A program made the translations under genes and the position numbers. Positions 26 to 39,814 of a stretch of DNA of 64,000 nucleotides are shown in pieces. Source of the DNA: Takakia lepidozioides (taxonomy: Eukaryota > Plantae > Bryophyta); NCBI GenBank assembly GCA_030704615.1, contig CM060734.1, positions 60,388,001 through 60,452,000 of the forward strand, in the 5' to 3' direction. Each line of letters begins with the position of its first letter. Position 1 is the stretch's first letter. The notes beneath the pieces are model-generated. The model worked only from the letters and a program-made list of their open reading frames with translations, had not been told where the DNA came from and ran no database searches.

Positions 26-34
26 TGGTTGCTA
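26..34 (-). promoter_or_regulatory. Candidate stop-codon readthrough signal TAG-CAA-CCA (UAG-CARYYA)
   Basis: Reverse strand reads caa gag gtt gca gcg TAG CAA CCA cgg gac; homologous position to TAG CAA TCA at 13011-13019. Confidence 0.65.
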
Positions 35-419
35 CGCTGCAACCTCTTGAGCAGTACCCCCTTCCTGCTCAGTCAATGACAAGGCCTCATCCTGCCCCAT
101 CATCTCATCATTGAGAACCTCCTCATCCCGAGAAGAATCCCCAACCTCATCCATCACAGCTGCCTTCGCTGCCAACTCCCTCTGAACCTCGAGCACCTTC
201 GTACATCACCTGAGTTATCAATTGTCTAGTCGTCCAAAAAATAGATAAGTTCTGTCGAACCCACGTGTGCCATGGATGTCTACACCTCGTGGTCCTCACC
301 GGCTCGCCCCCACTTGCTGCCTGTACCGTCTCGGTAGGCAGAGAGACTGTCAAGGGAAGTGCACTCCGCACTCTACGTTGCTCAGCCATAGCCAAGCTGA
401 CAATCCAGGTCAAGCAATT

Positions 420-1345
420 GAGATCCATTGCTTGCCCCAACACCTGACGACGTGATGCCTCAGAAAGAGAAGGCACCGCCGTGGTCCCAGTGGAAAACCC
501 CATAGCCCGCTCTCGCTCGTCGGCATTAGGCTCCACTAACTGCTGCAACTGAGCATCCCACAAGAGGCCAGGTCCACCATCCCGAAAAGCATGGGATCCT
601 GGGAAGCTGAGCAGTGTAGGTAATGCTGCTCGTGGTTGACCCACCCTGTTGACCACTGCCAAAGGCGAACGGTCATCGTGTCTCACACGTTGAGACTGCC
701 TTCCTGTGTCCAAAATGCCATCCACGGTGAGGTGTGCTGGCCGCTACACCCCATCAAATGCACGCTTGAGCAGTGCGGGTGGCATCAAGTTAGTCCACCA
801 TAGTCGTGGACGATGAGCCCGTGACCCCACTGCAGCTGCATCCAGCAATACTGCTGACCCAAGCCACGACCGGACTTGATGCACACTGGCCATCACCCTG
901 GCCCGAGAATCACCCATCAGTGGTACATTCTCCAAGATGTATGCTGGAGATACAGCTTGATAAAGCTGCAAGCAGTGCAAAATCCGCACCATCTCCCAAA
1001 ACAGACCCGTCCTCGAGTCTCGCAATCCATTGCCATGCCCGGCTGATGAATGCCCTTGGCAGGGCCAACCTGCCACTATCAGATCAATGGAGCCAACCTG
1101 CTCCAAATCTTGCGCCCCCAACAAGGAAATGTCTGCTGGCAAGGCTTGTTGGTATCCACGAACTGCAGACACAGGCAACAAGTCAGGGTACTGCTGTACC
1201 AACTGAGCCACATGGCGCAGTGAGACGCGTCGTGCAGTCTCATCCCTCTCCACATACAGGTAACGCCTTACCCGCACACCTGCCTGTAGCACAGCAGCCA
1301 ATCCGGTGCTGATCCCGCCAAACAAGTCCAGAAGGCAAATGCCTT
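420..1345 (-). pseudogene. C5 cytosine DNA methyltransferase domain (DNMT3-like, motifs I-X in canonical order), one in-frame TAG at 744-746
   Basis: Motif I LLDLFGGISTG; IV DLIVAGWPCQGHS (catalytic PC); VI YILENV; VIII AHRPRLWWTNL; IX ERERAMGF; X RRQVLGQAMD. ORFs 744..3965 and 147..725 are in the same frame, separated by one TAG. Confidence 0.92.
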
Positions 1346-4297
1346 CATCCGGCCGCTGCCACACAAGAGGTGTGGTGTCCAATGGCGACAACTGAGGTGG
1401 CCCTGGTGCAATCACCGCACTCTCCTCCTCTCCTGACGGTACAAAAGCTTCTACCCAAGCTTGTTGCACCCGTCCATCAGCAGCTTGCTGCAAATCCTTG
1501 CTCGTACCCCACAACGGAGTGTGAGCAACCATGGCAAGCAACTCCGCCGTACCATGCATGTCATCCTGCTCTACTGGAGGTGGCACATCCTCTGCATGGG
1601 CATTGCCTTCCAGCAACTCTCCAGGCCAACTAACTGCAGCTGTGAAGGCGGCTAGTGTTGGCATCTTGCCCCGCTGGGCAGCTGCAATACCCCCAATGAA
1701 TGTCACAGGGAGCTGTGCACGGCGACCATCCCCTGACTGCCATCCAGGCCTGTAGGATGCTGACTCCTCCCAAAAATCCAGGGTGAAGCCCATGGGGTAT
1801 AACACTGCCCCACCAACGAGGACATCGTAAGAGACCGCGTCTGTCACAATGGCCTTGGCTCGCATCACTGAGCCATCTACAGGATGATCCGGCTGCAGTC
1901 TAATAGCCAACTGATGTCGTGTCATGCCACGAGCCTGCTCTGATCCTCCCAGAGATGTCTGTATCTGGAAAGGACAAGGCTCCATATCCGCCTCCATGAG
2001 GCCAAAACCTGTAATAGCAGCTCTGCCCAACATCAGTGGCTGAGCTCCTGAGTCCAACAAGACCCGCAGTGGCCGGTACTTCTTGCCTGCCGGTCCACTC
2101 AAAGTGAAAATGCCTCCCTGGTTGTCTAACAAGACAACTCTAGGTGTCACCATGGCGCGCTCAATGGCTGGCCTAGCTGGCAGCTCCGTCAACCTGGCAG
2201 CTGCAACTTGCCATGGCGCAGCCGTGGCAGTCTTGACCCTCAAATCCGAGGATCCCTCTGCCACTACACCTTCCACTAACTCCGCAGAAGATGAAGTGAC
2301 CTCCCCACTCTCACAGAGTGTTGCTGCTAGTCTGAACACTGCAGCTGGTCTCACCCCCGGCGTTGCAATCATTGTTGCCGAGAACAGTGGGGCCTGACAC
2401 ACAGAGGTGGCTGCCCCCAATAACACACCGGCCGCACTAGCCTTGGCAGCAGGAGTCAATGCTGCACGTGTAGCTCTCCCCAATGGCATAGTAACCTCCG
2501 CCTCGGTAACAGTCGGGCGAGAACTAGGTGCCATGGATGGCGTCGACACAGTCTCCGCCAATGTGAATGACTGAGGAAGCCTTGCCTGACGGCTTGCCTC
2601 CCCATGCTGTGGATCCAATTCCACCTCTGCACCTCGTGGCTCAGGAACTCGTGCTGCTCCTCGAGTCACGGCTGCAGCAGACTCCACCTGCTCTAGTGGT
2701 AGTGCTGCTCCGCACATAAATCCCATGCCTCCCATATCTCCTCCCTCAGGAGCAGGAGGTGGACCATCCCGCCTGGGAGCCGGTACCGCCTGAGCTATAG
2801 CCATGGCAGCGAGCCTCTGCTCTAGCCGCTGAAGCCGGTTGGCCATGCCTTGATCAACGCCCTGACCTCCGCGTCCTTGGCCATGTTGAGCTTGCCCTTG
2901 GCCTGCACCTCGTGCCCGACCACCTCGTCCTCTCTGGGCTGGTCCACCTCGCCCCCGGCCACCATTGTTCCCTTGGAACTGGCCTGGGCGCAACTCAGGA
3001 TGCAAGTCATAACACTGGGCATCTCCATGCCCATACTTGCCACAATGCCCACACTGCAACTGTGCAGGCTGTGCTTGTGCCAGCCTTCTGCCACTCTCTG
3101 GGCAATCTCTCTTGACATGGGGTCCTCCACATGTCCAACATATCACCCCTGGTTGCTGTTGGCCTGCAAAAGATGCCACGGGCCTCTGCACCTGAGGTCC
3201 CCTATAAGCTCCATGGAACTTGGGCTGGGCAACCTTGCCCCCCTGACCACGCTGTTGGGCAGTCCCTTGTGCTTGTGGGCTGACAGCTGTGCCCCGTACA
3301 GGCATGTCCTTGCCAAATCCAATTGTAACAACTCGCTCCTCCACCATGTTGAGCTCAATCCGCTCAGCCAGCAAAAACACATCTGCTAATGTGGGTTGGG
3401 CTGCTTGTAACAGGGTTGCATCTCGCACCCTTCTCTTGAGCTCCTTGTCCAGAATTCCATACCAAAACTGGATTGCCTGAGCTTCAGTAACCCCTTGGGT
3501 CACACTTATCAAGCGCCTCATACGAGTGTACGCCTCTCGCAGGCTCTCACTGGGTTTGCGCTGGAAGTCTTGCAAACTTCGCAGCTTCTCTGTCCGTACA
3601 CCTTGGTAGTTCCTCCGCAACTCCTGGAAGAACTCCACCACCGGGTTGAATCTAGGCACATGTGTTGTAGTCGTGGCAGGAGGAGTAGTAGCACCTTTTG
3701 AACTGGTACCACCTGCAGAAGTACCAGCACTACCTGCTCCACTGCTAGTGCTGGCAGTGGGAGCTATTGGTACTGATGCAGCTACTGGTCGCGTCGTGCC
3801 TCGAGTAATGGAGACGTATTCAGGTGACCAATACATCCTCCACTCCTCAATCTCTGCTTCATGTCCTCGCCTGAACTCATGGTAATCGTCCATAGGCGGG
3901 CCTTCCAAATGCTGGAACAGTCCCTTCCCCACACCATGAATGGGGTGAATAGCTGTGGATTGCACATCTGCTGCAAATCACACCAGCTGTCGAACTTCTG
4001 GATAAAGTCATCCAACTCAATTGTGCCCACAGCTCCAGAGTACCTACGAGGCCCCTTGGTAGCTCCATACATCTCCTCCATGTCGTCCCACAACAATGGC
4101 GAATGAAAGTGCACACCTGTTGATGAAGCCTCCGAGTCTGTGTCTGACTCTACAGTAATTGAGGGTGGCGGTGAAGGTGGTCTGAACCGAATACCTCGTC
4201 TTGTGAACCCACTCTCACTGTTACTGCCTGTAGCCGTACTCCCCTCAAAACCCTTGGGTAACTCCGTAATGACACTCACAATGTGCACCTCCTCCAC
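744..4297 (-). pseudogene. Gag-protease-DNMT polyprotein of copy A; frameshift in a G-run near 3927
   Basis: ORF 3782..4297 (…LFTPFMVW) joins ORF 744..3965 (KGLFQHLEGPPMDDY…). Knuckles CWTCGGPHVKRDC and CGHCGKYGHGDAQC; aspartic protease VLLDSGAQP and YDVLVG. Confidence 0.88.
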
Positions 4298-4816
4298 GTG
4301 ACACTATAAGGCTCTAGTTCTAATCTAATAGTGACACGGGTGGGCACCTATTGCAGTTTAAGGGTCATATCCCAATGGCTCAGGGCACCTGCACCTGCAT
4401 CCACCGCAAGAACTCCTATGGTTGGCTGGTCATCAACCCAGCCTCACCATAGAAGAAACACTGGTGGTCTTGCTGGTCATCACTCCAGCCTCACCACCGA
4501 CAGCATACTCTAGGATTGACCGGTGATAAAATCCGGCCTAATCCCTATGAAAGCAAGCGCCCACACAAAACCAACATGGCGCACAGTCAAGCATGCAGGT
4601 GTTGGGGGGGATCCAAACACAAGAAATCAAAACATCAACACCCCCACACCAAAATCCAGCTGCAATGCTGATCCTGCAGAATATCCCAGCCCAAAACCCC
4701 GGACTGACTGGCCTCCACCAAGACAAGCTTTGGCAACTACAAGTACAAGGTAATGAAAATAGTACAGAAATGGAGGGGAAGAATAGAAGCCCGCCCAAGC
4801 AAGATCTAATCCTGAT

Positions 4817-5566
4817 CTATGCTATCAACTGCCAGACTTCTCTCAAAGTGCCTCTCTCTGCATGATGGTAAGGTGTAGGAGGTATATCTATGTCCAGAAA
4901 CCTGCCACTAACCTTGTCCCAAGCTACAGTAGCTCGCTCTAACCAACCCTCCTCCTCTTTCTGCCAAATAGAGACAAAGCAATACTCCCCTATCTTCCGC
5001 TCACTGAACACTAAAGAAAACAAAGGTAGGGTCTGATAGTCTCTCAACTCAAAAGCTTTGAGACGGTTGCGGGTGTCCTCATTGCGGACGACTGCATCGC
5101 CCTCAAGCAGAGCAAAATTGTCCTTGCAAATGAACCCCCGCTCGTGGTTGCCTTGTGCAGAGCATGTCCGGCTGCAACGCTGTTTCATTGCACAAACTTG
5201 TGAAGCTCCTGCTCCTCTACTCCAATACACCACGGCCTTGTGGCTGAACACCTTGGTCCCCGGGGCTGTCTTTTGCTGTGTTCCAAGCCTAGCTTTCACC
5301 CACGTTGGTATTTCACCTACAGCTGCAGAACTGCTGGCTCCAACAGAGTTCTGACTGTCCAAGGCGATATTGAGGCCCTCAACGCCAACTACAGCAGTTT
5401 GTTGTCCACTACTAATGCCTGACTCCCAGTATGCAATCAACTCGTCCAACTGTTCTCCACTCAAATCAGTCTGAGTTCCTTGGGAAACATAAATCTTGTC
5501 CGCTTTGGTGCACAGGCTAAGAGAAGAGACCCGCCCTTCAATCACGTCCTCATTTCCCCCAGCCAT
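4817..5566 (-). CDS. Hypothetical 249-aa ORF upstream of gag in the DNMT-Gypsy 5' region
   Basis: ATG-initiated open frame, also open in the diverged copy at 31844..32557; no recognisable domain. Confidence 0.45.
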   Translation of the reverse strand: MAGGNEDVIEGRVSSLSLCTKADKIYVSQGTQTDLSGEQLDELIAYWESGISSGQQTAVVGVEGLNIALDSQNSVGASSSAAVGEIPTWVKARLGTQQKTAPGTKVFSHKAVVYWSRGAGASQVCAMKQRCSRTCSAQGNHERGFICKDNFALLEGDAVVRNEDTRNRLKAFELRDYQTLPLFSLVFSERKIGEYCFVSIWQKEEEGWLERATVAWDKVSGRFLDIDIPPTPYHHAERGTLREVWQLIA

Positions 5567-7037
5567 ACAAGGAGTACATCCCCAGATTTATTTCTCATGT
5601 AGACCAGAACAGGTTCTAGAAACAGGATTGTGGATCTTTCATGGCACACTCACACTCTAAAAATTCCATAGATTTTTAGCAGAGTCCCAAAAACAGAAAC
5701 CAGGATAGGTAGATTTTCCCTTTCTGCAGCTATCCCCTCAAAAACTGGGTCAAACAGAGTCCATTTGACAAAGATATGACCAATTAGGCTCTAAATCCTT
5801 TAAATTAGATCAAAAGATTTTATTTATTTATTTTTAACACCCAAACGTTCTCGTCATTACAACCTGTTCGCAGGTTATCTACGGGTTCCCGAGGCCGTTC
5901 CCCGACTATGCTGACTCCGGGTCTTTGCTCTCACGGGGCTTCATGTTTGCCATCGCCCAGGGAGAGAAGCAAGGCGGACGCAGACGAGGGCAGCGATGGC
6001 CAAGCCTGCGCGAGCAAGCAGGAACAAGGAGGTGGTGTGGGGTGTTGGCCGATTCGGCCGATCAAAGACCTGATCAAAGGGTTGCGCATGAGCAGCTTGC
6101 ATGCTCGTCAATCTCCAAAGCCATGCAGCAGAGATGCCTGCTCCTGGTTCTGCTCCGTCAGCTCCTGGTTCTGCTCAGCCCTTCCCAGCCCTTGCTCTCA
6201 AAGGTTGTCCACTCAATCTCTCTCAAGCTGACCCCAAGTCTACCTGCATCACTCCCATGATTTACAGGCGACTTCCCTCCCCTTCCTTTCTTGTCACGGC
6301 AAATGACGGCATCAATATGGAATCCTTATGGATAACTTCAAATGACATTGACATCTTCATGGCGAAAAATCCAATTGACAATAGCCCAATCCCTACTTTC
6401 CGCACTAAGATTGACAATTTCGAGCACGGCTCGCACATCTGTCTCTTCACCCTCATGCTGGGATCACATGGGGGGCTTTCATTGAAGACTGTCCAGGCCT
6501 TGGCTCCAATTTGTCCCCGTCAACAAAGATTCTTGCCATTATGGACGAGAAGGATCTGCTGCTACCAGGGCACTCTTCCAAGGGTGAGTGGATTCACTTC
6601 GCTTCCCTGCAGCTGGACACAGTCCATTTATTCGTCGGCCTTCTGCTCATCTCACTGCGATGAACTTATCCATACGGGTGTCTCCACAATCAAGCGCAGC
6701 CTGCGACTCGGGACTGGTATTCATGTGACTCGGCTGCCTCCCCCTCGAATCACGGAAGTGTTTCTTCTATCTTCTCTCTTTCTTTTTCACTGTTTCTTTC
6801 TCTTTCTCTTGCTCTTTCCCCCCCGAACCTACCTGCCCCCTTCGAGCTGCCAGCGGCGGACAACTCCACAGTCATAAGAATGTGCGACATCTCCCACAAG
6901 GTTTTGCCATTCTTCATGTTATCTGCAGCAAAATCGCCCCAATGGAGAAAACCAAACACTCAGGCATGGAACTCATCACATGCAAGAATCCCAGCATATA
7001 CACACAGTGGTGTAATAAGCCCCCGACACAGGTGCTA

Positions 7038-7756
<719 letters not shown>

Positions 7757-8765
7757 GCCACAACAAGTACGTGTTGGTGATGGTGGAGCACTTCTCCAAG
7801 TTGATCGAGTTGGTTCCATTGCCTGATAAGGCTAGTGAGGGGTTGCGTATGCATTCTTGGATTGTGTACTTAGCCGATTCGGTGCTCCATCTGAGGTACT
7901 CACGGACCAAGGGAGAGAGTTCTTGGGGGAGTTTCAGGCTTTGTGTGACAAGGCCTTGGTAGACCACCGCACCACTTCTCGGGATCATCCTGAGGCCGAT
8001 GGCTTGGCAGAGAGGGTTGTTCAGACAGTAAAGAGGGGTTTGCGCAAGTATGGCTTGCAGAAGGGACACCTAGGAGATTGGGACCTTCAGTTACCCTGGT
8101 TAGCCATGGGCTACAGGTTCAGCAAGCAAGCATCACTTGCCTCCTTCTCACCATACTTTCTTCTCTTTGGCCAAGAGCCGGATTTGCCTACATCCATTCG
8201 TAGAGAAGCTGCTTCAGTTCTTGACCTTGACGATCCGGACGTGTAGGCACGTGCACGTGATCAGCGTGCAGAGTTGTTCAAGAAAGTCATGCCCATGGTT
8301 TTTGAGAACCTTGCCATTGCACAACATCGTGATACGTTGAGGTATGCTACCATACGTGGTGCGGGCTATCGTCTTGGGGTTCGAAGATTCAACCCTAGTG
8401 ACTATGTCTATCTGCAACAGACTGCTCCTACGACCTTGGATGTGACTGCAGGACGTGTTATTTTGAGGGTTCGAGAGGTATTGCCCTCAGGCGTCTTGAT
8501 CTTGGAGGGTCGGGATGGCATAACTTGGAAGGACCATGTGCGTAATTGTGCGCCATGTCACCTTCCGAATGTCGATGGTAGGATTGACCCAAACCTGGCA
8601 GTGGTACTTGCAAGTTTGAGGTGCAAGTTGTGTGGGTCTGCTAAAGGGGCAGCCACAATGCTGGTGTCTGATCAATGCTCAAGAGCTTGGCATATGGGAT
8701 GCTTGACACCACCTCTTGAGAGGGTTCATAATGGAGATTGGTTATGTCCACAATGCTTGGGATAG
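7757..8765 (+). pseudogene. Gypsy integrase core plus C-terminal PHD finger (frameshift and stop)
   Basis: VEHFSK, LTDQGREF, HPEADGLAER; PHD CKLC…(S)DQC…WHMGCLTPPL…GDWLCPQC. Confidence 0.9.
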
Positions 8766-9017: not shown

Positions 9018-9689
9018 AGGGGGGCGATTGTGTGGACTAGTGACTGCTATAGTGGGCAGCATAGTGGCAGCCTAGTGACTGACTAGTTGTAGCCTAGTGG
9101 TTGGACTAGTGGCTAGACTAGTGGTGGACTAGTGATATACTAGTGTGTGCACTTGTGTTGTGTGGTTTTGGACAGCGATGTAGTTGTGTAGCGATATGTA
9201 TGCGCACGACAGCTGTCAAGTTATTTTACCACTAGTGTGAAACTAGCTAGGAAATAGCTAGCTTTTACATATTGACATTTGGGAATGGCCCAAGTGTCAA
9301 TCCAGGGGTCAAGGCAAATTTAGGCCCTGGAGTGGTTATCTTCACGGCAAGCGCGGGAGGCTCATCTTTCTTGAGTTGAGCCTCACCGTGCCTAGCTATG
9401 GCGCCGTAGTATGGATTCTCCATAGCATGGGGTGTACTTGGCTTGACTTAATATGAGTGATGCTTTCATGTGCAAAGTTTGTGAGCTCAAGAGTGCTTGT
9501 ATTCTTCTTCTTTATGTGTGGACTAGTGACTGCTATAGTGGGCAGCATAGTGGCAGCCTAGTGACTGACTAGTTGTAGCCTAGTGGTTGGACTAGTGGTG
9601 GACTAGTGATATACTAGTGTGTGGCGTGCACTTGTGTTGTGTGGTTTTGGACAGCAATGTAGTTGTGTAGTGATATGTATGCGCACGAC
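9018..9689 (+). mobile_element. PPT and 3' LTR (from 9029) of the integrase-PHD element, with its first ~175 bp repeated at 9515-9689
   Basis: AGGGGGGCGAT followed by TG, the same junction as at 28726-28736; ACTAGTGG-rich internal repeats. The LTR 3' end is not resolved. Confidence 0.75.
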
Positions 9690-11479: not shown

Positions 11480-13562
11480 TGCTTTGGATTCAAGGGTGAA
11501 GTCAGCCACAGCTGCGCCATGGTAAGCGGTAGCTGCAAGGTTGCATGAGTTGTCAGCTGGGCTAGCCATTGAGCGCAACATGGTGACTCCTGGAGTAGTC
11601 ATGGTGGACAATCAGGATGGAATTGGGTGGCCCAACCAGGAGGAGGTATAGGCCACTACGGGTCTTGTTGGATTCGGGAGCACAACCATTGATGTTGGAG
11701 AGAGCAACAATTGTAGGCTTGGGCCTTACAGAGGAAGATTTGGAGCCTTGCCCTTTCCTAATTCAGACGTCTTTAGGTGGTTCAGAGAAGGCGCAAGGGA
11801 TTACACGCCATGAGCTCTTCATTCGACTACAGCCAGATCATCCTATGGATGGCTCAGTCAAGAGAGCCAAAGCCATTGTTACGTTCCTTTATGTCATACG
11901 ATGTGCTTATTGGTGGGGTTGTGTTGTACCCCATGGGATTTACTCTGGATTTTTGGGAGCAAACGACATCCTATAGGCCGGAGTGGCAGTCAGGGGATGG
12001 CCGACTTGCACTACTCCCAGGGCGGTTTATTGGGAATGTAGCGGTGGATCATAGGAACATAATGCCCACATTGGCTGCATTCCCAGGTGTGGTGGCTTGG
12101 AGTGCTGAGCTCTTGGAAAGCAATAGCCATGCAGATGATAGGCCACCACCTGATGAGGACAAACAATTGGCATACAAGGTTGAGTTGTTTCCTCATATTC
12201 TTGTTCATAGCTCACTGTGGGGTACAGTTGGGGATTTGCAGCAATTGGCAAGCTAGTGTGTGCAACAAGCATGGTAGGAGGCCTTTCCATTGGTGGGTGA
12301 GGGGAGTTTGGTGACATCACCTGGACCTCCTCAGTTAGCTCCATTGGACACAGTGCCTATTATCTGGCAACAACCTGACTCGTGCATTTGTTTGCTAGAC
12401 CTGTTTGGAGGCATGAGCACTGGGCTTGCACGAGCGTTGCAAGCAAGAATCAAAGTACGCAAGTACTTGTATGTGGAGAAGGATGAGATTGCTCGGTGTG
12501 ATTCCATGCGCCATGTTGCCTTGCTCACATATCAATGTCTTGAGTTGTTGCCCCTCTTAGCAATTCAAGGGTACCAAAAGGCCTTGCCAGCAGACATTAC
12601 CATGCTGGGGGCGGAGGATTTGGATCAGCATGGTCCCATTGACTTGGTGATAGGAGGGTGGCCTTGCAAGGAACATTCTCCTGCAGGTCAAGGTAATGGT
12701 TTACATGATGCACGATCGCATCTGTTTTGGGAGATGTTGCGAGTGTTGTGTGACTTGCAGGTGAGGCAAGTGCAACCTCCAGCTTACATCCTAGAGAATG
12801 TTCCTCTCATGGGGGATTCTCGGGCTAGGGTTATGGCCAGTGTACATCAGATCCGATCATGGATTGGACCAGCTGTATTGTTGGATGCAGCTACAATGGG
12901 TTCATGGGCACATAGGCCTAGGTTGTGGTGGACCAATCTTGCACCACTAGGAGCAAGTGGAGGCTACACCACAATCAGGGTGGGCGGACAAGCCCCAAGA
13001 GGTTGCTATGTAGCAATCAAAGGATGCGTCTCCTACCTGTAAGCCTGGTGTACCCAAGGTTGCAGTCACTAAGGACAATTGGGAACCAGATGTTGGACCT
13101 ACAATTACCGGAGGAGAGAGACGGAGGATCCGGCGAATTTTAAGGGCTTATAGAAATTGCTTTGCCTTTGGTTTGAAGGATTTGGGGAGTTTGAAGGGCC
13201 AGGAGATTCGTATTGATTTGGCAAGTGATACGCCAAATTTTTAAAGGCCCTACAGATATAGTGACATGGAGAGGTCTTTGATCCAGTCATGGACTATGGA
13301 GTTGTTCGAAGCTAGATTGGTGGAGTTGTCAGGCGGGGAGTATGCCTTGGCAACGGTGATGCCAGCTAAGAAAGATATCTATGACAATTGGACAGAAAGA
13401 AGGATATGTGGGGACTATCATCCTGTGAACCGCTAGACTAAGTCCAATAGATATGTCATGCCAACTCCAGAGGAAATCTTTGATGCAATTGGGCATGCGA
13501 AGGTGTTTAGCACATTGGATTTACGATCGGGTTATCACCAGTTGCCAATCAAAGAGACTGAC
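11480..13562 (+). pseudogene. DNMT-Gypsy copy B: protease, DNMT motifs I-VIII (IX-X deleted), linker, RT N-terminal half
   Basis: LLDSGAQP; LLDLFGGMSTG; GPIDLVIGGWPCK; ENV; AHRPRLWWTNL; RT RPYRYS…RRICGDY…FSTLDLRSGYHQLPIKETD. Confidence 0.9.
13011..13019 (+). promoter_or_regulatory. Candidate readthrough signal TAG-CAA-TCA, in frame with RT
   Basis: gag gtt gct atg TAG CAA TCA aag gat gcg; the frame continues into …YRNCFAFGLKDLG… of RT. Confidence 0.65.
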
Positions 13563-25901: not shown

Positions 25902-28458
25902 ATGACATTGTGGGGGATTGACCAGTATGTGAAAGATTGTTTGTACCAATGGCGTTTCCTACCATTTGGGTTGAAGGATGCTTCTACAGAGTTTCAGAGG
26001 GTCATGGATAAGATTCTTGCAGGCTAGACTTCGCCTTATGCTACATTGATGACATCATCATATTTAGTGCCATGGTTGAGGAGCATGAGAGACATCTTCA
26101 GGTAGTGTTTGAGCGCTTGAGGACGCATTGATTGAAACTGCACCCCGGAAAATGCGAGTTCTTCCACGATCAGATTGAGTATTTGGGCCACATGATATAC
26201 CTTGGAGGATTAGGTGTACAACAGACAAAGGTGGAGGCTATTGCACGCATTCCATTCCCCATAGATGTAAGCAAAGTTCGTGCTTTCATGGGGTTAGCAA
26301 ACTACTATCGTCGGTTTATTAAGGGATTTAGCAACATTGCGAAGGCTCTTACCAAGTTGACCAAAGTGGATCAGGAGTGACAGTGGGAGGAGGAGCAGGA
26401 GGAAGCCTTTGAGGAACTCAATGCTCGATTGACTTCTGCGTCTATTCTGAGGCGGCCTATTCGGGGGCGGTCTTTCCAGCTACATACGGATTGAAGTATG
26501 CTAGGGATTGGAGCAGTGTTCACACAGGTGGATGATGAGGGAAGAGAGTTCGTAGTGGCATATGCTAACCACTCGAACAATGATGCCGAGGCCAAGTATA
26601 GATCCTATGAAGGGGAGTGTTTAGCTGCAGTATGGGCAGTGACACATTTTAGATGCTACATTTATGGCAATTTTCTTCACATTTGTCACGGATCACCAAC
26701 CATTGAAGTGGTTGATGGAGTCAGACAAGCTTATAGGAAAGCTTGCACGGTGGGCACTTATGCTTCAAGAGTACGACCTCTAGGTGGTACATCGAGCCGC
26801 AATAGTCAATCGGGATGCGGATGGATTGAGTCGCAATCCATGCACAAGTGAGCTTGATGATACAAGAGCTCGTTGGCATGGTGAGACAGACGAGGAGATG
26901 GTGCCTGGATGGCACGCATCTGCCTTTTTGGGCATTCTAGCAATGTGAGCTCAAGCTGGTCCATCCCATATGATTGGTCACGTAGGTGGGGTGCATGACG
27001 ATCTGGAGATCAGTGAAGAGTTTGGTGGTGCTAAAGATGTGCATGAAGATGCAGCAGTGTTGGCCTACATTTGTACCGAAGAGACAGTACCTAGTGTGAC
27101 TGCTAAGGAGAGAGATCGGATCCTACAACGAGCCAAGAGGTTCAAGTGGGATGGGACTCACCTACTCCGAGTATGGGAGGATGGATGAATGAGGATTGTG
27201 CCTCATCCAACACAATAAGCGTGATTGGTATGTCATGCCCATCAGGAGTTGGAACATTTTGGGGTGCGGCGCACCCATAGTTTGCTGTAAGGACAGTACT
27301 GGTGGCAGGGCATGCACATGGATATGCAACAGTTAGTGACAAGGTGCATGGTGTGTGATAGAGTGCGGGCTTCTTTCAATGCACCTACATCCTTTACCTA
27401 TTATGTGTTTGGGCTATCGTTGGAGTTTTGACTTCGCAGGCCCATTGCCATTAGCAATTCGTCATAACAAATATGTGCTGGTGATGGTGGAATATTTCTC
27501 CAAGTGGATTAGTGGCTGACAACAAGGCAAGTGAGGAGTCTGCGTATGCATTTTTAGATCGAGTGCTTAGCCAATTTGGTGCTCCAGCCGAGGTACTCAC
27601 GGACCAAGGGAGAGAGTTCTTGGGGGAGTTTCAGGCTTTGTGTGAGCAAGTCTTGATAGACCACCGCACTACTTCTCGAGATCATCCCGAGGCTGATGGT
27701 TTGGCGGAGAGAGTTGTTCAGACAGTCAAGATGGGTTTGCGCAAGTACGGTTTGCAGAAGGGACACCTGGGAGATTGGGACCTTCAGCTGCCTTGGTTGG
27801 CTATGGGCTATAGGTTTAGCAAACAAACGACATTTGCCTCCTTCTCACCTTACTTTCTTCTCTTCGGCCGAGAGTTAGATTGACCTGCATTTATTCGCAG
27901 GGAGGTTGCAAGTAGTCATTGACCTTGATGATCTAGATGTATGGACACAAACATATGACCAGCGGACAAAGTTGTTCAAGAGAGTCATGCCTATGGCTTT
28001 TGAGAACCTTGCTATTGCCCAACACCGAGACACATTGAGATATGCCACCATACGTGGGCGGATATCGACCGAGTGTTTGGAGATTCAACCCTGGGGACTA
28101 TGTGTATCTGCAACAGACATCACCTACAACCTTGGATGTCACAGCAGGGGCGATTCTATGGGTACGGGAGATGTTGCCTTCAGGAGTGTTGATTCTAGAG
28201 GGTCGAGATGGCATGGTATGGAAGGACCATGTGCGTAATTGTGCGCCATGTCACCTTCCACATGTGGATGGGAGGATAGACCCCAACCTTGCAGTCGTAC
28301 CTGCAGGGTTGCGTTGCATGCTATGTGGGTATGCTGGTGGTGCCGCCACCATGCTGGTGTGTGATAAATGTTCAAGGAGGTGGCACATGGGATGCTTGAC
28401 ACCGCCACTTGAGGCGGTTCCTAGCGGAGAATGGTTGCGTTCACGATGCCTTAGATAG
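25902..28458 (+). pseudogene. DNMT-Gypsy family pol: RT C-terminal half, RNase H, integrase, PHD finger
   Basis: WGID…LPFGLK…YIDD; LHTD(W)S…YEGECLAAVW; HQELEHFG…CMVC; TDQGREF; CMLC…CDKC…WHMGCLTPPL. Resumes RT almost exactly where 13562 stops. Confidence 0.9.
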
Positions 28459-28725: not shown

Positions 28726-28870
28726 GGGGGGCGATTGTGGCATAGCTTTCTAGGATTGTGTGCTTAGAATGTATGGTGGACAACGATGTATGTTGTGACA
28801 CGATGCTTAGGTGCACGATAGCTGTCATGGTTTTAGTCATGGTTAACTAGAATTACATACTTCTAGGCCC
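28726..28870 (+). mobile_element. PPT and start of the 3' LTR (from 28736), truncated
   Basis: GGGGGGCGAT-TG; shares GCACGAYAGCTGTCA with the 9029 LTR. Confidence 0.7.
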
Positions 28871-29273
28871 TACTCCACTACAGATTGATCTTGATTTCTC
28901 TGACTTCTAGGAATCTGCTTTCGCTTAGAATGCTATCACCGAATTGATCAAGAAATATTAGGAAGAGGTTGAAATGAAGACGGCTGAAGAGAAACGTTTG
29001 TATCATAAACTGCTTGATTATGGTGCATGTTCTAGTTCTCAAGTTGGACATCACTTTCATCATTGCCAAAATGTCCATGATTCAGGTTCAACGCATTTGA
29101 TCAGACTACAACGACCGGTTTTAGTGTTTGTACGTTTGCAATCATGAACAAATAGATATAACATTAATAAATAGACAACATTGGGCATTATTTTGAATTG
29201 CAAAGTACGATGATGATTTCTTCATATTTGTGTTAAGACAACATGATTTCATGTCAAGCTTCGTGTACATATC

Positions 29274-29709
29274 TGTCAAGTTAAATAAGCACAGTGTGAA
29301 AACAGCTAGAATAAAACTAGTTATTTGTATTTAACACTTGGATTTAGGTCAAGTGTTAAATCAGGTGTCAAGTTTAGTTTGACACCTGGTCCGTCTTATC
29401 TTCACGAGAGCGGCAGTCGCGCGGCTCATCTTTCTCGAGTTGAGCCTGCGCGACCGAGCTCCTGCATGCGTTTAGATCTGAGTGTACTCATGATGGGAGT
29501 GTAGGTTGTTGTGGGGTGGAGTCCCCATAGCTTGGGGTGCCCCTGGCTCGACTACTATTTCTAAGAGTGATGGTTTGGTTTTCATGTTTTGTGTAAACAG
29601 TGTGTTCGAAGATTTTCTATCACTCGAGAAAGATGACTCTATCTAGTTTTCGTGCTAAGCTAGATATGATGTTTTTGTTTTTAAGCACTATTAGAATATA
29701 GCTTGGTCA
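29274..29709 (+). repeat. ~440-bp TG…CA structured repeat
   Basis: Diverged copy of 7308-7756 with identical ends; three hairpins; no TSD. Confidence 0.75.
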
Positions 29710-29831
29710 CGGGGGGCCTGCAGTTAGACTGGCTATGTGTGCCGAGTGGAGCATAATAGGAAGGTGGAAACCATTCGAAGTGTTGCTGCAGCAGTTCAAA
29801 GCCGACAATAATCGCTCTCAATGGCACATGA

Positions 29832-30018
29832 GGGGCTGTCTCCGTCAGCCTGTCTATCCATCAAACCAGCTTTTGCTTTGTGTGTACGCATTTGACTTCC
29901 GGTCACAATGAAGGAGACGAACTTCGGAGGAATGCTGATGTCGCTGAGATTTTGCGCCGGACCACTTTCCCTCGTTCAGTCAAGCTTTCGGGAATAGAGC
30001 TCCCTGAGACAATAATCG
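29832..30018 (+). pseudogene. Type I inositol polyphosphate 5-phosphatase exon fragment
   Basis: GAVSVSLSIHQTSFCFVCTHLTSGHNEGDELRRNADVAEILRRTTFPR…PETI. Confidence 0.8.
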
Positions 30019-30289
30019 CCCCCGACTTCTTCAACTGTTTCCAGAGAACAGAGTGCGAGTTTCTGGAGGAAATGAGCTCGCAGGTGATCAAATCTGTGTA
30101 GTGAAGGAGTATTCTTTAAACAGTTATTTCTTCTCTCCGCGTATGCTGCAGTATCCGCAGTGACTCTGCAGAGAATGGGTGGAAGTTGAGATGAACTACT
30201 GTGCATCACTATGTTCGCGAGCGACGATAGTCTTCGTTTTGGCAGCCTGTCTATTTGCAGGTAATCAGGCAACCAATCAGACCCAAGCA

Positions 30290-30630
30290 TAATTCCAATT
30301 GGGTGCAAGCCTTGTCCTTGGTCAGAACCCCTGGATTTCATCTCCTAATGGCACCTTTGCATGGGGGTTCTATGCCCCTGGCACGGTAGATACTGCCTAC
30401 AATCTTGGCATCCGGTATGCACAACTCTCGCTTCAAACTATCGTGTGGACCCTGAACGCATATCCGGTGGATACAACGGGTGCGTTGGAGCTTAAATCGG
30501 ATGGTGACCTAGTGCTGATTCAGAATTCCTCGCAAGCTGTAATTTGGTCCAGCAACACAAACCAGCTAGGGGTTGTTGGGGCCAGTCTCTTGGACTCTGG
30601 GAACTTTGTCTTGCTAAACGGCAGTGGCGC
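30290..30630 (+). pseudogene. Bulb-type (G-type) lectin domain fragment of an S-domain receptor kinase
   Basis: SPNGTFAWGFY…IVW…LELKSDGDLVL…IWSSNT…LLDSGNFVL; no downstream kinase. Confidence 0.85.
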
Positions 30631-31172
30631 ATTTCGTGAATTCCTGAGGCCCGAAGGCCCAACTTCTAAGCTCTGCCGTTGTCCTTGTTTCCGTGAAGAA
30701 GGGCAATTGCGCATCGTGGGCATGTTTCTCAAGGAACAGGGTAGCCCAAAAGGAAGCTGATGAAGCCCTCAAAAGCAGTGCAACATGGACAAAGGCAGGA
30801 AAGAGATGCGTGAGTGGTGGCTTTTCTTCCTCACCTTGGCTGTCGCACAGCGATCTGTGCGCAGCGATGCTCGAATGTGCGATCGGAGGCGTTGATGGAT
30901 TGCAGTTGATACTGGGTCAGGGTGCCTGCTCGCTCAAGTTGATGGGAATGCGGGGTTGAACTTGGGGGCGGAAAGTGGTTGTTCGCAGTCCCAAAAGGAT
31001 ACTGGAGCTATACATTGAGCAAGGTGTTGAATAGGAACAGCAAGCGGAGATCGTCCAGCGAACTCCGTGACTGAGAGAATGGCAGGCCACCATCACAAAA
31101 AGCAAAATGGGACGCAAAGAAGTGTAGTGAAGGGATAGCTGACAGTTTCAGGGCGCGCAACACTGATGGCAC

Positions 31173-31400
31173 TCAAAGTGTGCTCTTGCTAGCATTTGGA
31201 ACGCTCACTATGCCCACATCTGCAACCAGCTTCAGCTCCCAGTCCACCCACATTTCTGCACCCTCCTCGCCATTTTCGGCCATCTGAGGAGTCTTGTTGC
31301 GACCAGTCTTGAAGGTAGTGTTGCCTCGTCCACCCTGACCTCCTGGCAGCAGCAGCTCTTGCTTCCCTGGAGTTCCAGCAGAACATCGCCATTCCTTCCG
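31173..31400 (-). pseudogene. Obg/CgtA GTPase gene fragment
   Basis: GGQGGRGN…[21 protein letters not shown] (degenerate G1 motif). Confidence 0.8.
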
Positions 31401-31540
31401 TCTTCCCAAAGCCGTGGCCTCTGTGTTGACATTGGCTTCACCTGCTTTAACCTTGGAAAAAGCTATTATGAAGGTTTGAAGAAGGAGTCCAAGGAATTCT
31501 TAGGGAACCTGCAGTGAATCCCAAAAGACGTGGGAACAGT

Positions 31541-33431
31541 TTTTAATGGTGAGAACGTTTTCGTGTTAAAAAAAAAAAAAAAAAAAAACTTTTGATCTAA
31601 TTTAAATGATTTAGAGCCTAACTGGTCATAACTTTGTCAGATGGACTCCGTTTGACTCAGTTTTTGGGAGGATAGCTGCAGAAAGGGGAAATCTACCTAC
31701 CTAGACCTGGTTTCTGTTTTTGGGACTCTGCTAAAAATCTATGGAATTTTTAGAGTGTGAGTGTGCCATAAAAGATCCACAATCCTGTCTCTAGAACCTG
31801 TGCTGGTCTATATGAGAGACAAATCTGTGGATGTACTCCTTGCATGGCTGGGGGAAATGAGGACGTAATTGAAGGGCAGGTCTCTTCTCTTAGCCTGTGC
31901 ACACAAGAGGACAGGATTTATGTTTCCCAAGGAACTCAGACTGATTTGAGTGGAGAACAGTTGGACAAGTTGATTGCATACTGGGAGTCAGGCATTAGCA
32001 GTAGACAACAGACTGCTGTAGTTGGCATTGAGGGCCTCAATATCGCCTTGGACAGTCAGAACTCTGTTGGAGCCAGCAGTTCTGCAGCTGTAGGTGAAAT
32101 ACCAAAGTGGGTGAATGCTAGGCTTGGAACACAGCCAAAGACAGCCCCGGGGACCAAGGTGTTCAGCCACAAGGCCGTGGTGTACTGGAGCAAAGGAGCA
32201 GGAGCTACACAAGTTTGTGCAATCAGACATGGTTGCAGCCCGATACGCTCTACACATGGCAACCACGAGCGGGGGTTCATCAGCAATGACATGTTTGTTG
32301 TGCGTGAAGGAGATGCAGTCATTCGCAATGAGGACACCCGCAACCGTCTCAAAGCTTTCGAGTTGAGAGACTATCAGACCCTACCTTTGTTTTCTTTAGT
32401 GTTCAGTGAGCGGGAGATAGGGGAGTATTGCTTTGTCTCTACCTGGCAGAAAGAGGAGGAGGGTTGGTTAGAGCGAGCTACTGTAGCTTGGGACAAGGTT
32501 AGTGGCAGGTTTCTGGACATAGATATACCTCCTACACCTTACCATCATGCAGAGTGAGGCACTTTGAGAGAAGTCCGGCAGTTGATAGCATAGATCAGGA
32601 TTAGATCTTGCTTGGTCGGGCTTCTATTCTTCCCCTCCATCTCTGTACTATTTTCATTACCTTGTACTTGTAGTTGCCAAAGCCTCTCTTGGTGGAGGCC
32701 AGTCAGTCCGGGGTTTTGGGCTGGGATATTCTGCAGGATCAGCATTGCAGCTGGATTTTGGTGTGGGGGTGTTGATGTTTTGATTTCTTGTGTTTGGATC
32801 CCCCCCAACACCTGCATGCTTGACTGTGCGCCATGTTGGTTTTGTGTGGGCGCTTGCTTTCATAGGGATTAGGCCGGATTTTATCACCGGTCAATCCTAG
32901 AGTATGCTGTCGGTGGTGAGGCTGGAGTGATGACCAGCAAGACCACCAGTGTTTCTTCTATGGTGAGGCTGGGTTGATGACCAGCCAACCATAGGAGTTC
33001 TTGCGGTGGATGCAGGTGCAGGTGCCCTGAGCCATTGGGATATGACCCTTAAAACTGCAACAGGTGCCCACCCGTGTCACTATTAGATTAGTACTAGAGC
33101 CTTATAGTGTCACGTGGAGGAGGTGCACATTGTGAGTGTCATTACGGAGTTACCCAAGGGTGGTGAGGGGAGTACGGCTACAGGCAGTAACAGTGAGAGT
33201 GGGTTCACAAGACGAGGTATTCGGTTCAGACCACCTTCACCGCCACCCTCAATTACTGTAGAGTCAGACACAGACTCGGAGGCTTCATCAACAGGTGTGC
33301 ACTTTCATTCGCCATTGTTGTGGGACGACATGGAGGAGATGTATGGAGCTACCAAGGGGCCTCGTAGGTACTCTGGAGCTGTGGGCACAATCGAGTTGGA
33401 TGACTTTATCCAGGAGTTCGACAGCTGGTGT
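31541..33431 (+). mobile_element. DNMT-Gypsy copy C: 5' region and gag start, truncated
   Basis: Inverted homolog of about 3980-5861; gag 33114-33431 breaks at FDSWC. Confidence 0.88.
31844..32557 (+). CDS. Hypothetical 237-aa ORF, paralog of 4817..5566
   Basis: Same ATG and open frame; ends 12 codons earlier. Confidence 0.45.
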   Translation: MAGGNEDVIEGQVSSLSLCTQEDRIYVSQGTQTDLSGEQLDKLIAYWESGISSRQQTAVVGIEGLNIALDSQNSVGASSSAAVGEIPKWVNARLGTQPKTAPGTKVFSHKAVVYWSKGAGATQVCAIRHGCSPIRSTHGNHERGFISNDMFVVREGDAVIRNEDTRNRLKAFELRDYQTLPLFSLVFSEREIGEYCFVSTWQKEEEGWLERATVAWDKVSGRFLDIDIPPTPYHHAE

Positions 33432-33432
33432 G

Positions 33433-33709
33433 AACCGATCGAGGACCACAGTTCATATCAAATTTCTGGAGGGGATTATTTCACATATTGGATACTAAGA
33501 TCAACCTCTCTGTAGCTAATCATCCACAGACTGATGGTCAAACCGGACGCGTAAACCAAAATTTGGAGCAATATCTTTGTTGTACGATAAATTATCACCA
33601 AGATAATTGGACGGACCTTCTGCCATTAGCTGAGTTTGCCTACAACAACAATATACATTCTTCGACCAAGCAAACTCTATTTTTCTCCAATTATGGTCAT
33701 CATCCTTGA
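33433..33709 (+). pseudogene. Chromovirus-type integrase fragment
   Basis: DRGPQFIS…HPQTDGQT…LPLAEFAYNN. Confidence 0.85.
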
Positions 33710-34470
33710 GTAATCCCTTGTCACATAAAAACTATTGGACTTGGGGGGGGGCACTCCAGCCAGTATGTACCAGCCACGTGCGAGCACAGGAGGAGGTATT
33801 TTAAACCCCCACATGTACAACATTATACATACATAGGAGGGTTTTAAACACCTTAAATTTCAAGCAACGACCGAAGGTCGGAAGCTAGTTTAGTGTAGAG
33901 TAGGAATAGGGTGCCATAGTGCCACGTTTTTGTCGCCACGTTTCATAGCCAAGTTTTGTCGTCAAATTATTTGGAATCTGCCCCGACTGCCCGCCCAAAA
34001 TATGCCAATAAAAATCGCCGTGCCAACTTTTTTGAAACTGCCCGCAATGCCCGGATCTTGATTTCTGGAACTACAGGAGCTATGCGTTTTCCGCCATAGT
34101 TCACCTTGCAAGCTGCAAGCTCTCAACAAAATGAGGACATCCATGCTGAGCTGAAGAGATCGACTTGGCAGATGAAGGATCAAGCATAGAAATGTCTGAA
34201 TGTGGCTTTCAACATTGGGTGAGCCAGTGAGGATTGTGAAGTTCAAGAATATGAGTGATACAGAAACAGAAAACAACTAGATGGTGAACGCTATAGAGAA
34301 GTGTAGTGGAGGGATCTGTTATGGAGAAGGTATTTACTGAAGTTGAGGTCTTGTGAATAGAGCTCACATTGAAGTGAGAAAGCAAAAGTTGAAATTTGAA
34401 CAGAACTGTTTGACTCTGCTTCCAATGGCCTCATTTCAGAGTTGGTTTGAAGTCATAGCAGGGGCGCGGG

Positions 34471-34692
34471 ATGGAGGCCTTGGAGACCTATGAGAAAATG
34501 ATGGGGGAAAGGGTGAAGTGCAACCACATCACGTTTGTGTGCGTTGGCAATGCTTGTGCAAGCCTGGCAGCCCTGGAAAGGGGCAAAGAGGTGCATGGTG
34601 ACATTATCAAAGCTGGAATTGTACCAAATGTCATTTTGGACACTGCCCTGGTGGACATGTATGCGAAATGTGGTAGATGGTCAATTGGATAA
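34471..34692 (+). pseudogene. PLS-class PPR gene fragment
   Basis: ITFVCVGNACASLAALERGKEVH…TALVDMYAKCG. Confidence 0.85.
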
Positions 34693-37731: not shown

Positions 37732-39814
37732 GTCAGTCTCTTTGATTGGCAACTGGTGATAACCCGATCGTAAATCCAATGTGCTAAACACCTTCGCATG
37801 CCCAATTGCATCAAAGATTTCCTCTGGAGTTGGCATGACATATCTATTGGACTTAGTCTAGCGGTTCACAGGATGATAGTCCCCACATATCCTTCTTTCT
37901 GTCCAATTGTCATAGATATCTTTCTTAGCTGGCATCACCGTTGCCAAGGCATACTCCCCGCCTGACAACTCCACCAATCTAGCTTCGAACAACTCCATAG
38001 TCCATGACTGGATCAAAGACCTCTCCATGTCACTATATCTGTAGGGCCTTTAAAAATTTGGCGTATCACTTGCCAAATCAATACGAATCTCCTGGCCCTT
38101 CAAACTCCCCAAATCCTTCAAACCAAAGGCAAAGCAATTTCTATAAGCCCTTAAAATTCGCCGGATCCTCCGTCTCTCTCCTCCGGTAATTGTAGGTCCA
38201 ACATCTGGTTCCCAATTGTCCTTAGTGACTGCAACCTTGGGTACACCAGGCTTACAGGTAGGAGACGCATCCTTTGATTGCTACATAGCAACCTCTTGGG
38301 GCTTGTCCGCCCACCCTGATTGTGGTGTAGCCTCCACTTGCTCCTAGTGGTGCAAGATTGGTCCACCACAACCTAGGCCTATGTGCCCATGAACCCATTG
38401 TAGCTGCATCCAACAATACAGCTGGTCCAATCCATGATCGGATCTGATGTACACTGGCCATAACCCTAGCCCGAGAATCCCCCATGAGAGGAACATTCTC
38501 TAGGATGTAAGCTGGAGGTTGCACTTGCCTCACCTGCAAGTCACACAACACTCGCAACATCTCCCAAAACAGATGCGATCGTGCATCATGTAAACCATTA
38601 CCTTGACCTGCAGGAGAATGTTCCTTGCAAGGCCACCCTCCTATCACCAAGTCAATGGGACCATGCTGATCCAAATCCTCCGCCCCCAGCATGGTAATGT
38701 CTGCTGGCAAGGCCTTTTGGTACCCTTGAATTGCTAAGAGGGGCAACAACTCAAGACATTGATATGTGAGCAAGGCAACATGGCGCATGGAATCACACCG
38801 AGCAATCTCATCCTTCTCCACATACAAGTACTTGCGTACTTTGATTCTTGCTTGCAACGCTCGTGCAAGCCCAGTGCTCATGCCTCCAAACAGGTCTAGC
38901 AAACAAATGCACGAGTCAGGTTGTTGCCAGATAATAGGCACTGTGTCCAATGGAGCTAACTGAGGAGGTCCAGGTGATGTCACCAAACTCCCCTCACCCA
39001 CCAATGGAAAGGCCTCCTACCATGCTTGTTGCACACACTAGCTTGCCAATTGCTGCAAATCCCCAACTGTACCCCACAGTGAGCTATGAACAAGAATATG
39101 AGGAAACAACTCAACCTTGTATGCCAATTGTTTGTCCTCATCAGGTGGTGGCCTATCATCTGCATGGCTATTGCTTTCCAAGAGCTCAGCACTCCAAGCC
39201 ACCACACCTGGGAATGCAGCCAATGTGGGCATTATGTTCCTATGATCCACCGCTACATTCCCAATAAACCGCCCTGGGAGTAGTGCAAGTCGGCCATCCC
39301 CTGACTGCCACTCCGGCCTATAGGATGTCGTTTGCTCCCAAAAATCCAGAGTAAATCCCATGGGGTACAACACAACCCCACCAATAAGCACATCGTATGA
39401 CATAAAGGAACGTAACAATGGCTTTGGCTCTCTTGACTGAGCCATCCATAGGATGATCTGGCTGTAGTCGAATGAAGAGCTCATGGCGTGTAATCCCTTG
39501 CGCCTTCTCTGAACCACCTAAAGACGTCTGAATTAGGAAAGGGCAAGGCTCCAAATCTTCCTCTGTAAGGCCCAAGCCTACAATTGTTGCTCTCTCCAAC
39601 ATCAATGGTTGTGCTCCCGAATCCAACAAGACCCGTAGTGGCCTATACCTCCTCCTGGTTGGGCCACCCAATTCCATCCTGATTGTCCACCATGACTACT
39701 CCAGGAGTCACCATGTTGCGCTCAATGGCTAGCCCAGCTGACAACTCATGCAACCTTGCAGCTACCGCTTACCATGGCGCAGCTGTGGCTGACTTCACCC
39801 TTGAATCCAAAGCA
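37732..39814 (-). pseudogene. Mirror of copy B (protease-DNMT-RT), with TAG-CAATCA at 38275-38283
   Basis: ORFs 38252..39004 and 39318..39677 are identical to the left-arm ORFs. Confidence 0.9.

Follow-up and report, generated by a model that had tools for sequence, protein, structure and literature searches.

A DNMT3-like methyltransferase ahead of a conserved stop codon in a Ty3/Gypsy retrotransposon family of bryophytes

What does a cytosine DNA methyltransferase do inside a long terminal repeat (LTR) retrotransposon, and in what amount is it made relative to the other products of the element? The question is raised by a stretch of 64,000 nucleotides (nt) from the moss Takakia lepidozioides (assembly GCA_030704615.1, contig CM060734.1, positions 60,388,001 to 60,452,000 of the forward strand), here called the window, which holds decayed copies of a Ty3/Gypsy family. 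An original prediction, made from the letters of the window, described copy 1 (minus strand) as a Gypsy element with a C5 methyltransferase inside its polyprotein. The explanation preferred here, held with moderate confidence, is that the family encodes Gag, a protease and a DNMT3-like methyltransferase ahead of a leaky UAG codon, and that the enzyme is packaged at the level of Gag and methylates the complementary DNA (cDNA) of the element. Three features go beyond the prediction, namely a conserved stop between methyltransferase and reverse transcriptase (RT), a C-terminal PHD finger and split terminal repeats. Coordinates are collected in Table 1; statements on published work refer to the available parts of each source.

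The motifs that had been read in copy 1 (I, IV, VI, VIII, IX and X) were all located, and its main open reading frame (ORF) matches PF00145 at residues 949–1058 (expectation value, E, 1.8e-12, above the curated Pfam cut-off). By sequence, the best solved relatives of the domain are DNMT3A (E 7e-11) and DNMT3B (4e-8), followed by DRM (1e-5 to 1e-3) and bacterial enzymes (about 1e-3), and the match to DNMT2 is weak (0.085); the C-terminal, target-recognition half taken alone matched no solved structure by sequence. Fold prediction from a single sequence gave a predicted local distance difference test score (pLDDT) of 32, and an 80-row alignment was used instead for the domain of the related locus L001 (pLDDT 97, predicted template modelling score 0.94). 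The top Foldseek matches of this model were all DNMT3 (DNMT3A/B/C, E 4e-20), and the best viral model (4e-17) superposed with a root mean square deviation of 7.9 versus 3.3–4.2 for DNMT3. The circular permutation of plant DRM, in which motifs VI–X precede I–V, is absent and the motif order is canonical. Similarity and the ranking of predicted folds thus support a DNMT3-like, unpermuted C5 methyltransferase, as originally proposed.

Across 99 rows of the domain the catalytic cysteine is kept in all 94 ungapped rows, the glutamate of ENV in 97 of 98, and the two arginines of motif VIII in 94 and 95 of 96; the proline of the PC motif is replaced by glutamate in 45 of 95. The ratio of nonsynonymous to synonymous substitution rates (dN/dS) was estimated by the Nei-Gojobori method on hand-picked copies with few breaks, dS being near saturation. 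Between subfamilies it was 0.10–0.24 for the N-terminal half of the methyltransferase (0.21–0.24 in the three measurable pairs) and <0.09–0.17 for the C-terminal half, similar to the 0.10–0.17 of Gag and the <0.11–0.33 of the protease, with <0.06 for RT; within subfamilies the methyltransferase gave 0.4–1.2, matching the expectation for dead copies. This check, suggested with the prediction, supports purifying selection on the domain between subfamilies, and the enzyme is probably catalytically active.

Motifs I (LFGGISTG), IV (GWPCQ), VI (ENV) and VIII (RAHRPR) of copy 1 lie upstream of an in-frame stop at 744–746, and motifs IX (ERERAMGF) and X (GQAMD) downstream of it in unchanged frame; a frameshift near 3927–3930 separates the Gag start from the main ORF. 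The Gag match in this ORF is weak (E 0.005, below the Pfam cut-off), two CCHC-like knuckles lie at about 2991–3149, and the protease has no Pfam call, its identification coming from homology and the DSG motif. Copy 2 carries the domain in the same place, as stated originally, with motifs IX–X removed by a deletion and a frameshift besides; both copies are damaged, and the family copies inside the window are dead. The RT of copy 1 falls outside the window, where it would begin just past base 1, so that copy 1 bears out only the first half of the claimed position after the protease and before RT; the full order is seen in copy 2 and in relatives. A metagenome scan, for which the DNMT domain served as bait throughout, returned 62 related loci, eight of which have the complete order gag-CCHC-protease-DNMT-RT-RNase H-integrase-PHD, supporting the domain as a family trait.

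The domain is in frame with RT, but an in-frame stop parts the two. RT starts were examined in the 42 loci among the 62 that passed the filter and in copy 2, and all 43 are preceded at 16–23 codons by a stop (35 TAG, 8 TAA). CAR-YY follows directly 3' of the stop in 41 of them, the remaining two reading TAG-TAG-CCA and TAG-TAA-CCC. As a control, this context was found at 7 of 496 decay stops within domains, and CARYYA at none; 8 of 22 copies have a stop at the domain codon most often hit, so that none exceeds 36% of copies. Gene models of Marchantia and Calypogeia (P0014, P0017, P0021 and P0022) terminate close to this position, proteins being compared. In copy 1 the ORF end had been placed at 147, which does not hold: the family stop lies at 34–32, 91 codons past the domain, and is in frame with it once a copy-specific stretch of 61 nt, which shifts the frame of the linker downstream of the methyltransferase, is discounted. 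A further stop in L001, between protease and methyltransferase, was attributed to decay, being absent in L011 of the same subfamily. The methyltransferase, then, closes ORF1, a point new relative to the original prediction. The stop may be a bryophyte feature, since some relatives near Closterium lack it.

Gammaretroviruses make Pol by readthrough of the stop between gag and pol. UAG-CAR-YYA is the type I readthrough motif of plant viruses including tobamoviruses, benyviruses and pomoviruses, in which the polymerase is made in lower amounts (PMC3542737), as proposed here; the present site follows protease and methyltransferase, not Gag. From this context, production of RT, RNase H, integrase and PHD finger by readthrough of the conserved stop appears likely. 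Most ribosomes would halt after Gag-protease-DNMT and a minority would continue into the remainder; the protease would free the methyltransferase within the particle, where it would methylate new cDNA ahead of integration, and the methylated copy might then resemble host heterochromatin or evade surveillance, with the PHD finger biasing integration. With the stop placed after the methyltransferase, the enzyme would be packaged in Gag-level amounts. That cDNA is its substrate stands at about even chances, and steering of integration by the PHD finger through histone reading could go either way.

Several observations weigh against parts of this account. No footprint of self-methylation was found: the observed-to-expected CpG ratio of copy 1 (0.46) equals that of the window (0.48) and exceeds that of a Gypsy without the domain (0.25), L001 and L006 have 0.27 and 0.59, and neither CpG nor CHG ratios set the family apart, so that the self-methylation or mimicry first suggested gains no support from this test and is kept here in the conditional. 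The domain of the Klebsormidium relative was inactive in yeast, a result that its authors called inconclusive (PMC5890265). The strict UAG-CAR-YYA is present in window copies 1 and 2 and in L001, L061 and L062, and strict CARYYA in only 4 of the 43 RT starts, 36 of which have CAA-CCC; these 43 are not independent, 38 belonging to one subfamily and several being repeat assemblies of a single site; the largest subfamily has an ATG 6 nt past the stop (mostly CAA-CCC-ATG); and algal-type relatives (P0001, P0002, P0004, P0005, P0116 and P0222) fuse methyltransferase and RT in one ORF. Finally, the DNMT tree, a quick one with no host DNMT3 as outgroup, gives no support for a single streptophyte clade, the Klebsormidium protein P0159 not joining the bryophyte group with support. 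Stronger evidence for conservation of the stop than the 43 rows is provided by five divergent copies (both window copies, L001, L004 and L043; dS 1.4 to saturation), in which the 9-nt site is identical at 6–9 of 9 positions and the ungapped flanks at 30–55%.

The most resilient rival accepts the same family and mode of expression and has the methyltransferase act in the nucleus after its release by the protease, either on integrated copies (self-silencing as a brake on copy number) or on host chromatin near new insertions. Gag-level output would far exceed the enzyme needed for one cDNA, a PHD finger points to an element that reads chromatin, the family shows no CpG depletion of its own, and self-limitation is among the options listed by de Mendoza et al. 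(PMC5890265). Against this, fusion to Gag and protease places the domain in the particle together with nascent cDNA. Mosses and liverworts also have MET1, CMT and DNMT3 enzymes of their own, which would make an additional enzyme for silencing unneeded, and nuclear action is considered unlikely beside methylation of cDNA in the particle.

A second rival holds that the stop merely closes ORF1 and that Pol comes from a spliced or shorter RNA or from reinitiation, as in Ogre/Tat elements. The ATG of the largest subfamily, in frame two codons past a stop of non-strict context, fits this idea, but it is missing in window copies 1 and 2, L001, L061 and L043. Furthermore, the stop is always in the frame of RT, the adjacent CAA is kept across subfamilies at dS of 1.4 to saturation, and one contig, from a run whose RNA status is a guess, crosses the site unspliced. 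Readthrough is preferred, and expression without it is rated rather improbable.

It is very unlikely that the domain has been retained for a task unrelated to DNA methylation; it might, for example, methylate or bind the RNA or primer in the particle, or protect the ends of the cDNA. The failure of the Klebsormidium domain to methylate yeast DNA (PMC5890265) and the target-recognition half without a sequence match to solved structures would suit such a role, but fold and catalytic motifs all fit DNMT3 and not DNMT2, and related SymbioDIRS-Dnmt3 domains do methylate CG in yeast (PMC5890265). Explanations by an assembly chimera, by contamination with algal DNA or by a piece of host DNMT3 inserted by chance are hardly credible and largely refuted: a 10-kb inverted duplication of 99.2% identity does end at an N gap beyond which GUN4, vWA and GAR1 lie, but the same order recurs in the eight full-length loci and in liverwort assemblies (contigs of 13–41 Mb), and runs of one organism from four studies contain the stretch, with like depth over gag, protease and methyltransferase.

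Table 1. Positions in the window of family copies, their parts and neighbouring features (a dot in the strand column: no strand assigned)
Feature	Position	Strand	Remarks
Copy 1, stop UAG-CAA-CCA, predicted end of ORF1	26..34	-	readthrough-type context; stop codon itself 34-32
Copy 1, copy-specific 61-nt stretch	199..259	.	skipped in contigs of 4/4 runs (X1, X7, X6, X5; joint 198-260)
Copy 1, DNMT3-like C5 methyltransferase domain	369..1385	-	motifs I-X in canonical order; broken by in-frame stop 744-746
Copy 1, main ORF (1077 aa)	747..3977	-	Gag, CCHC-like knuckles, protease, methyltransferase motifs I-VIII
Copy 1, aspartyl protease (LLDSGAQ)	1695..2213	-	homology and DSG motif; 59% identity with Marchantia relative P0014
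Copy 1, Gag N-terminus	3929..4303	-	frame differs from that of main ORF; other copies show length difference at 3927
Copy 1, 5' leader	4304..5875	-	95% identity to copy 3 leader
A-type terminal repeat, begins TGTCA	7308..7757	-	1.4 kb upstream of copy 1 leader
Fragment of another family member	7759..8765	+	integrase core and C-terminal PHD finger; PF00628 E 1.1e-9
Split direct repeats of that fragment	9029..9689	+	B1 9029-9211, GC, A 9214-9514, B2 9515-9689; G-rich tract precedes
Copy 2, protease, frameshifted	11520..12031	+	homology
Copy 2, methyltransferase, motifs I-VIII	12341..12940	+	PF00145 E 5.9e-12; C-terminal half deleted
Copy 2, stop UAG-CAA-UCA	13011..13019	+	in frame with RT, 23 codons ahead of it
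Copy 2, RT, 5' part	13080..13562	+	reaches query position 72
RT 3' part, RNase H, integrase, PHD	25905..28455	+	RT resumes at query position 77
B repeat and B/GC/A junction at 3' end of preceding piece	28738..28830	+	truncated shortly beyond
Copy 3 remnant	29273..33433	+	A repeat at 29273-29709, then 1.8 kb of unrelated DNA, then leader with Gag N-terminus at 31528-33433
Short PPR-like fragment	34462..34677		element's side of gap; PF13041 E 5e-4, below cut-off
Mirror of 5' part of copy 2	37732..39808	-	within inverted duplication
Host genes: vWA/Vwaint protein, GAR1, GUN4	50600..59642		past gap

The closest published system is KnitGypsy-Dnmt3 of Klebsormidium nitens, which shares the Ty3/Gypsy set protease-RT-RNase H-integrase, an unpermuted Dnmt3-type domain under purifying selection and DIRS-like repeats in the arrangement A-coding-B-A-B (PMC5890265, the last in the legend of its Fig. 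4c). It differs in that DNMT and RT are in one ORF (PMC5890265, review file), in place of the conserved stop, and in its host, an alga as opposed to a land plant; the PHD finger, the length of the target duplication and the CA-NN-TG junction described below are not part of its description in the available text (PMC5890265). The Klebsormidium protein P0159 (GAQ93235.1) has the order CCHC-protease-DNMT, as in the bryophyte family, and we infer that it belongs to the published one. The present family is very probably a bryophyte branch of the KnitGypsy-Dnmt3 kind. Acquisition was placed in the K. nitens lineage (PMC5890265), whereas the distribution found here stretches from Mesostigma as far as bryophytes, and Scenedesmus is in a sister clade; the available text of that paper mentions Marchantia nowhere, and its table of 96 genomes lists Physcomitrella with 9 DNMT genes.

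Among other systems, a Gypsy type of the order RT-RNase H-DNMT-integrase-PHD (P0003 of Scenedesmus sp. PABB004 and 50 more proteins) shares about 35–46% identity in DNMT and the same integrase-PHD end, but carries the DNMT between RNase H and integrase of an uninterrupted Pol, implying Pol-level enzyme, and forms a clade of its own. SymbioDIRS-Dnmt3 resembles the present family in its Dnmt3-type domain, which methylates CG de novo in yeast, and in its split direct repeats (PMC5890265), but is a dinoflagellate DIRS element with a tyrosine recombinase, in contrast to the DDE integrase, TG...CA ends and 4-bp duplications found here. EpiLTRs/DAM-LTRs are likewise LTR elements with DNA methyltransferases and a histone reader, with a DNMT that is related to DNMT4 and paired with DAM and a chromodomain (bioRxiv 10.64898/2026.05.21.726589); that preprint refers to 'streptophytes (Gypsy-DNMT3)' as prior work, and its main text has no match to Marchantia or land plant. 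A 2019 review reports methylase-encoding transposons in green algae and charophytes and their absence from land plants such as tracheophytes (PMC6338049). No report of the bryophyte family, its readthrough site or its ends was found in the literature that could be searched, which excludes Repbase, most subscription papers and, for PMC5890265, the main supplementary PDF, and the family is unmentioned in the available text of 10.1101/2021.11.30.470311, PMC11244446, PMC3441728, PMC6317226, PMC9985172 and PMC9477723.

From the conserved stop, enzyme is predicted at the level of Gag in bryophytes and, for the clade of Scenedesmus type, at the level of Pol. Marchantia polymorpha is a genetic model for which methylation mutants and gene editing are available, so that what retrotransposon DNMTs do, a question not settled in 2018, becomes testable in this plant. 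Seventeen Marchantia gene models are copies of the element, and gene counts may mistake them for methyltransferases of the host.

Relatives of near-full length number 29 (17 from Marchantia, 1 from Calypogeia, 2 from Sphagnum and 9 without an organism name); 30 further proteins include 8 from Closterium, 2 from Calypogeia and 1 each from Mesostigma and Klebsormidium, 18 having no organism. Protease followed by methyltransferase is also the order in Closterium, Klebsormidium and Mesostigma. Tracheophyte or Physcomitrium names are lacking among 29 + 12 protein matches and 30 cluster look-ups (12 with an organism), though as evidence of absence this is weak. The domain was placed in a set of 192 proteins: in 53 it follows the protease or precedes RT, in 60 it follows RNase H or precedes the integrase (the only organism name being Scenedesmus), and the other 79 are too short for a decision. 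In both the DNMT and the RT tree the second group forms a clade (Shimodaira-Hasegawa-like approximate likelihood ratio test 99), except for a single long branch that the DNMT tree puts elsewhere, and the window copies nest among bryophyte sequences with support of 99. The DNMT tree is a quick version of 99 rows that omits the 79 proteins of unassigned architecture and lacks host DNMT3 sequences as an outgroup, the RT tree includes two outgroup rows and no Klebsormidium RT, and neither is able to show donor, root or horizontal transfer.

The integrase ends in a PHD finger in both domain-order groups, and this common end points to a single lineage in which the domain changed place, the trees lacking the outgroups needed for proof. 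A bolder scheme can be put forward tentatively and is on the unlikely side: a single DNMT3 capture by a Gypsy lineage that dates back to the first green plants, the domain moving between two polyprotein slots and in bryophytes coming to lie, together with Gag, upstream of a leaky stop, with particles loaded with methyltransferase, cDNA methylated beforehand and steered by the PHD finger, and ends rebuilt from an internal CA-GC-TG junction instead of textbook LTR strand transfers. Moss-type and liverwort copies interleave in the DNMT tree, with protein identities of about 70% in DNMT and 80–89% in RT; slow evolution, old paralogues or horizontal transfer may account for this. Some elements of the RNase H-DNMT-integrase order gain a C-terminal Tudor domain (PF21743) or a G-patch before the integrase (P0087, P0118, P0114 and P0146).

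The repeats of the family are arranged A-coding-B-A-B, complete in L021, L034 and L039, and the B-A-B part is present in the window (Table 1), B1 following a G-rich tract. Left ends (12 inspected) start with TGTCA or a decayed form of it and right ends close in ACA; a 4-bp target duplication (TCTC, CATA, AAGG and ATTA) flanks each of the four copies in which both ends are present. The internal B/A junction reads CA-NN-TG, NN being GC in 5 of 10 cases (the window contributes two, at positions 9212 and 28821), AT in 2, AC in 2 and TC in 1; pattern matches in L016 and L019 proved unrelated and were excluded. No TGG primer site was seen after the first A repeat in the 12 copies inspected. The integrase is of the DDE type (rve and H2C2 domains) with the PHD finger at its C-terminus. 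Retroviral integrases of this type trim two terminal bases, and by analogy the junction looks like joined blunt cDNA ends that still carry those two bases. That it templates both cDNA ends, including the two extra trimmed bases, is possible, with the odds slightly against. Split direct repeats together with a DDE integrase imply an undescribed route for rebuilding cDNA ends. Two loci, L026 and L044, stop at the first B repeat (A-coding-B), L044 with its 4-bp target duplication, a shape likely produced by recombination between B repeats or by cutting at the internal junction.

Assignment to other groups was considered and rejected. A chromovirus is excluded by the PHD finger at the integrase C-terminus, where no chromodomain match was found, and a DIRS/PAT element with a tyrosine recombinase by the rve/H2C2 integrase, the TG...CA ends and the 4-bp duplications. 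The four duplications do not agree with the NCGN insertion preference of Phygy (REXdb; PMC6317226). Troyka, considered as a Gypsy with split repeats, is unrelated, having CG...CG ends, 3-bp duplications and a host range restricted to animals (PMC12440569).

Within the window, the A-type repeat upstream of the copy 1 leader is assigned to copy 1 by inference. The A repeat is followed by an unrelated stretch (1.4 kb at 5876–7307 in copy 1, of low depth, and 1.8 kb at 29710–31527 in copy 3, including a B-lectin fragment at 30293–30760) and then by the same leader; the stretch may be a slot for captured host DNA. An ORF of about 256–261 codons is open in both leaders (4817–5587, minus strand, in copy 1; 31772–32557, plus strand, in copy 3; 95% identity) and could be due to chance; in copy 1 (256 codons) it has no match in Pfam or Atlas. 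The downstream piece that opens with RT at 25905–26200 is probably the remainder of copy 2, split by nested insertions in a rearranged region. Diverged LTR-like repeats at 13563–14075 and 25339–25899 (73% with gaps) flank the material that splits this RT.

The land-plant context claimed originally is borne out by the relatives in Marchantia, Calypogeia and Sphagnum and by the host gene GUN4, which is 79% identical to that of Sphagnum, 73% to Marchantia and 71% to Physcomitrium and groups with mosses (84/91) as a deep branch of its own, separate from both Sphagnum and Physcomitrium. The B-lectin fragment and the weak PPR fragment lie on the same side of the N gap as the element. Summed contig depth over gag, protease and methyltransferase, which is not a copy number, is far above that of the adjoining 6.2–6.9 kb. 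No run carrying the stretch is listed as RNA; X7, guessed to be RNA, does not cover 655–981, which is no evidence either way.

A second Ty3/Gypsy element lacking a methyltransferase occupies 16240–25285 (plus strand), with LTR-like repeats at 9883–10863 and 24313–25285 (97.7%). It encodes protease, RT, RNase H and integrase followed by three long ORFs of 566, 669 and 279 codons, none of them matched in Pfam and one containing a 30-nt tandem repeat, a layout we take to be Athila/Tat-like. An inverted duplication of 10.3 kb (5993–16239 versus 35055–45278, 99.2% identity) ends at the N gap at 45282–45781 and is possibly a fold-back assembly artefact; the apparent third methyltransferase copy (the mirror in Table 1) is part of it and was rejected as an independent copy. 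The duplicate nearer the gap has additional frameshifts.

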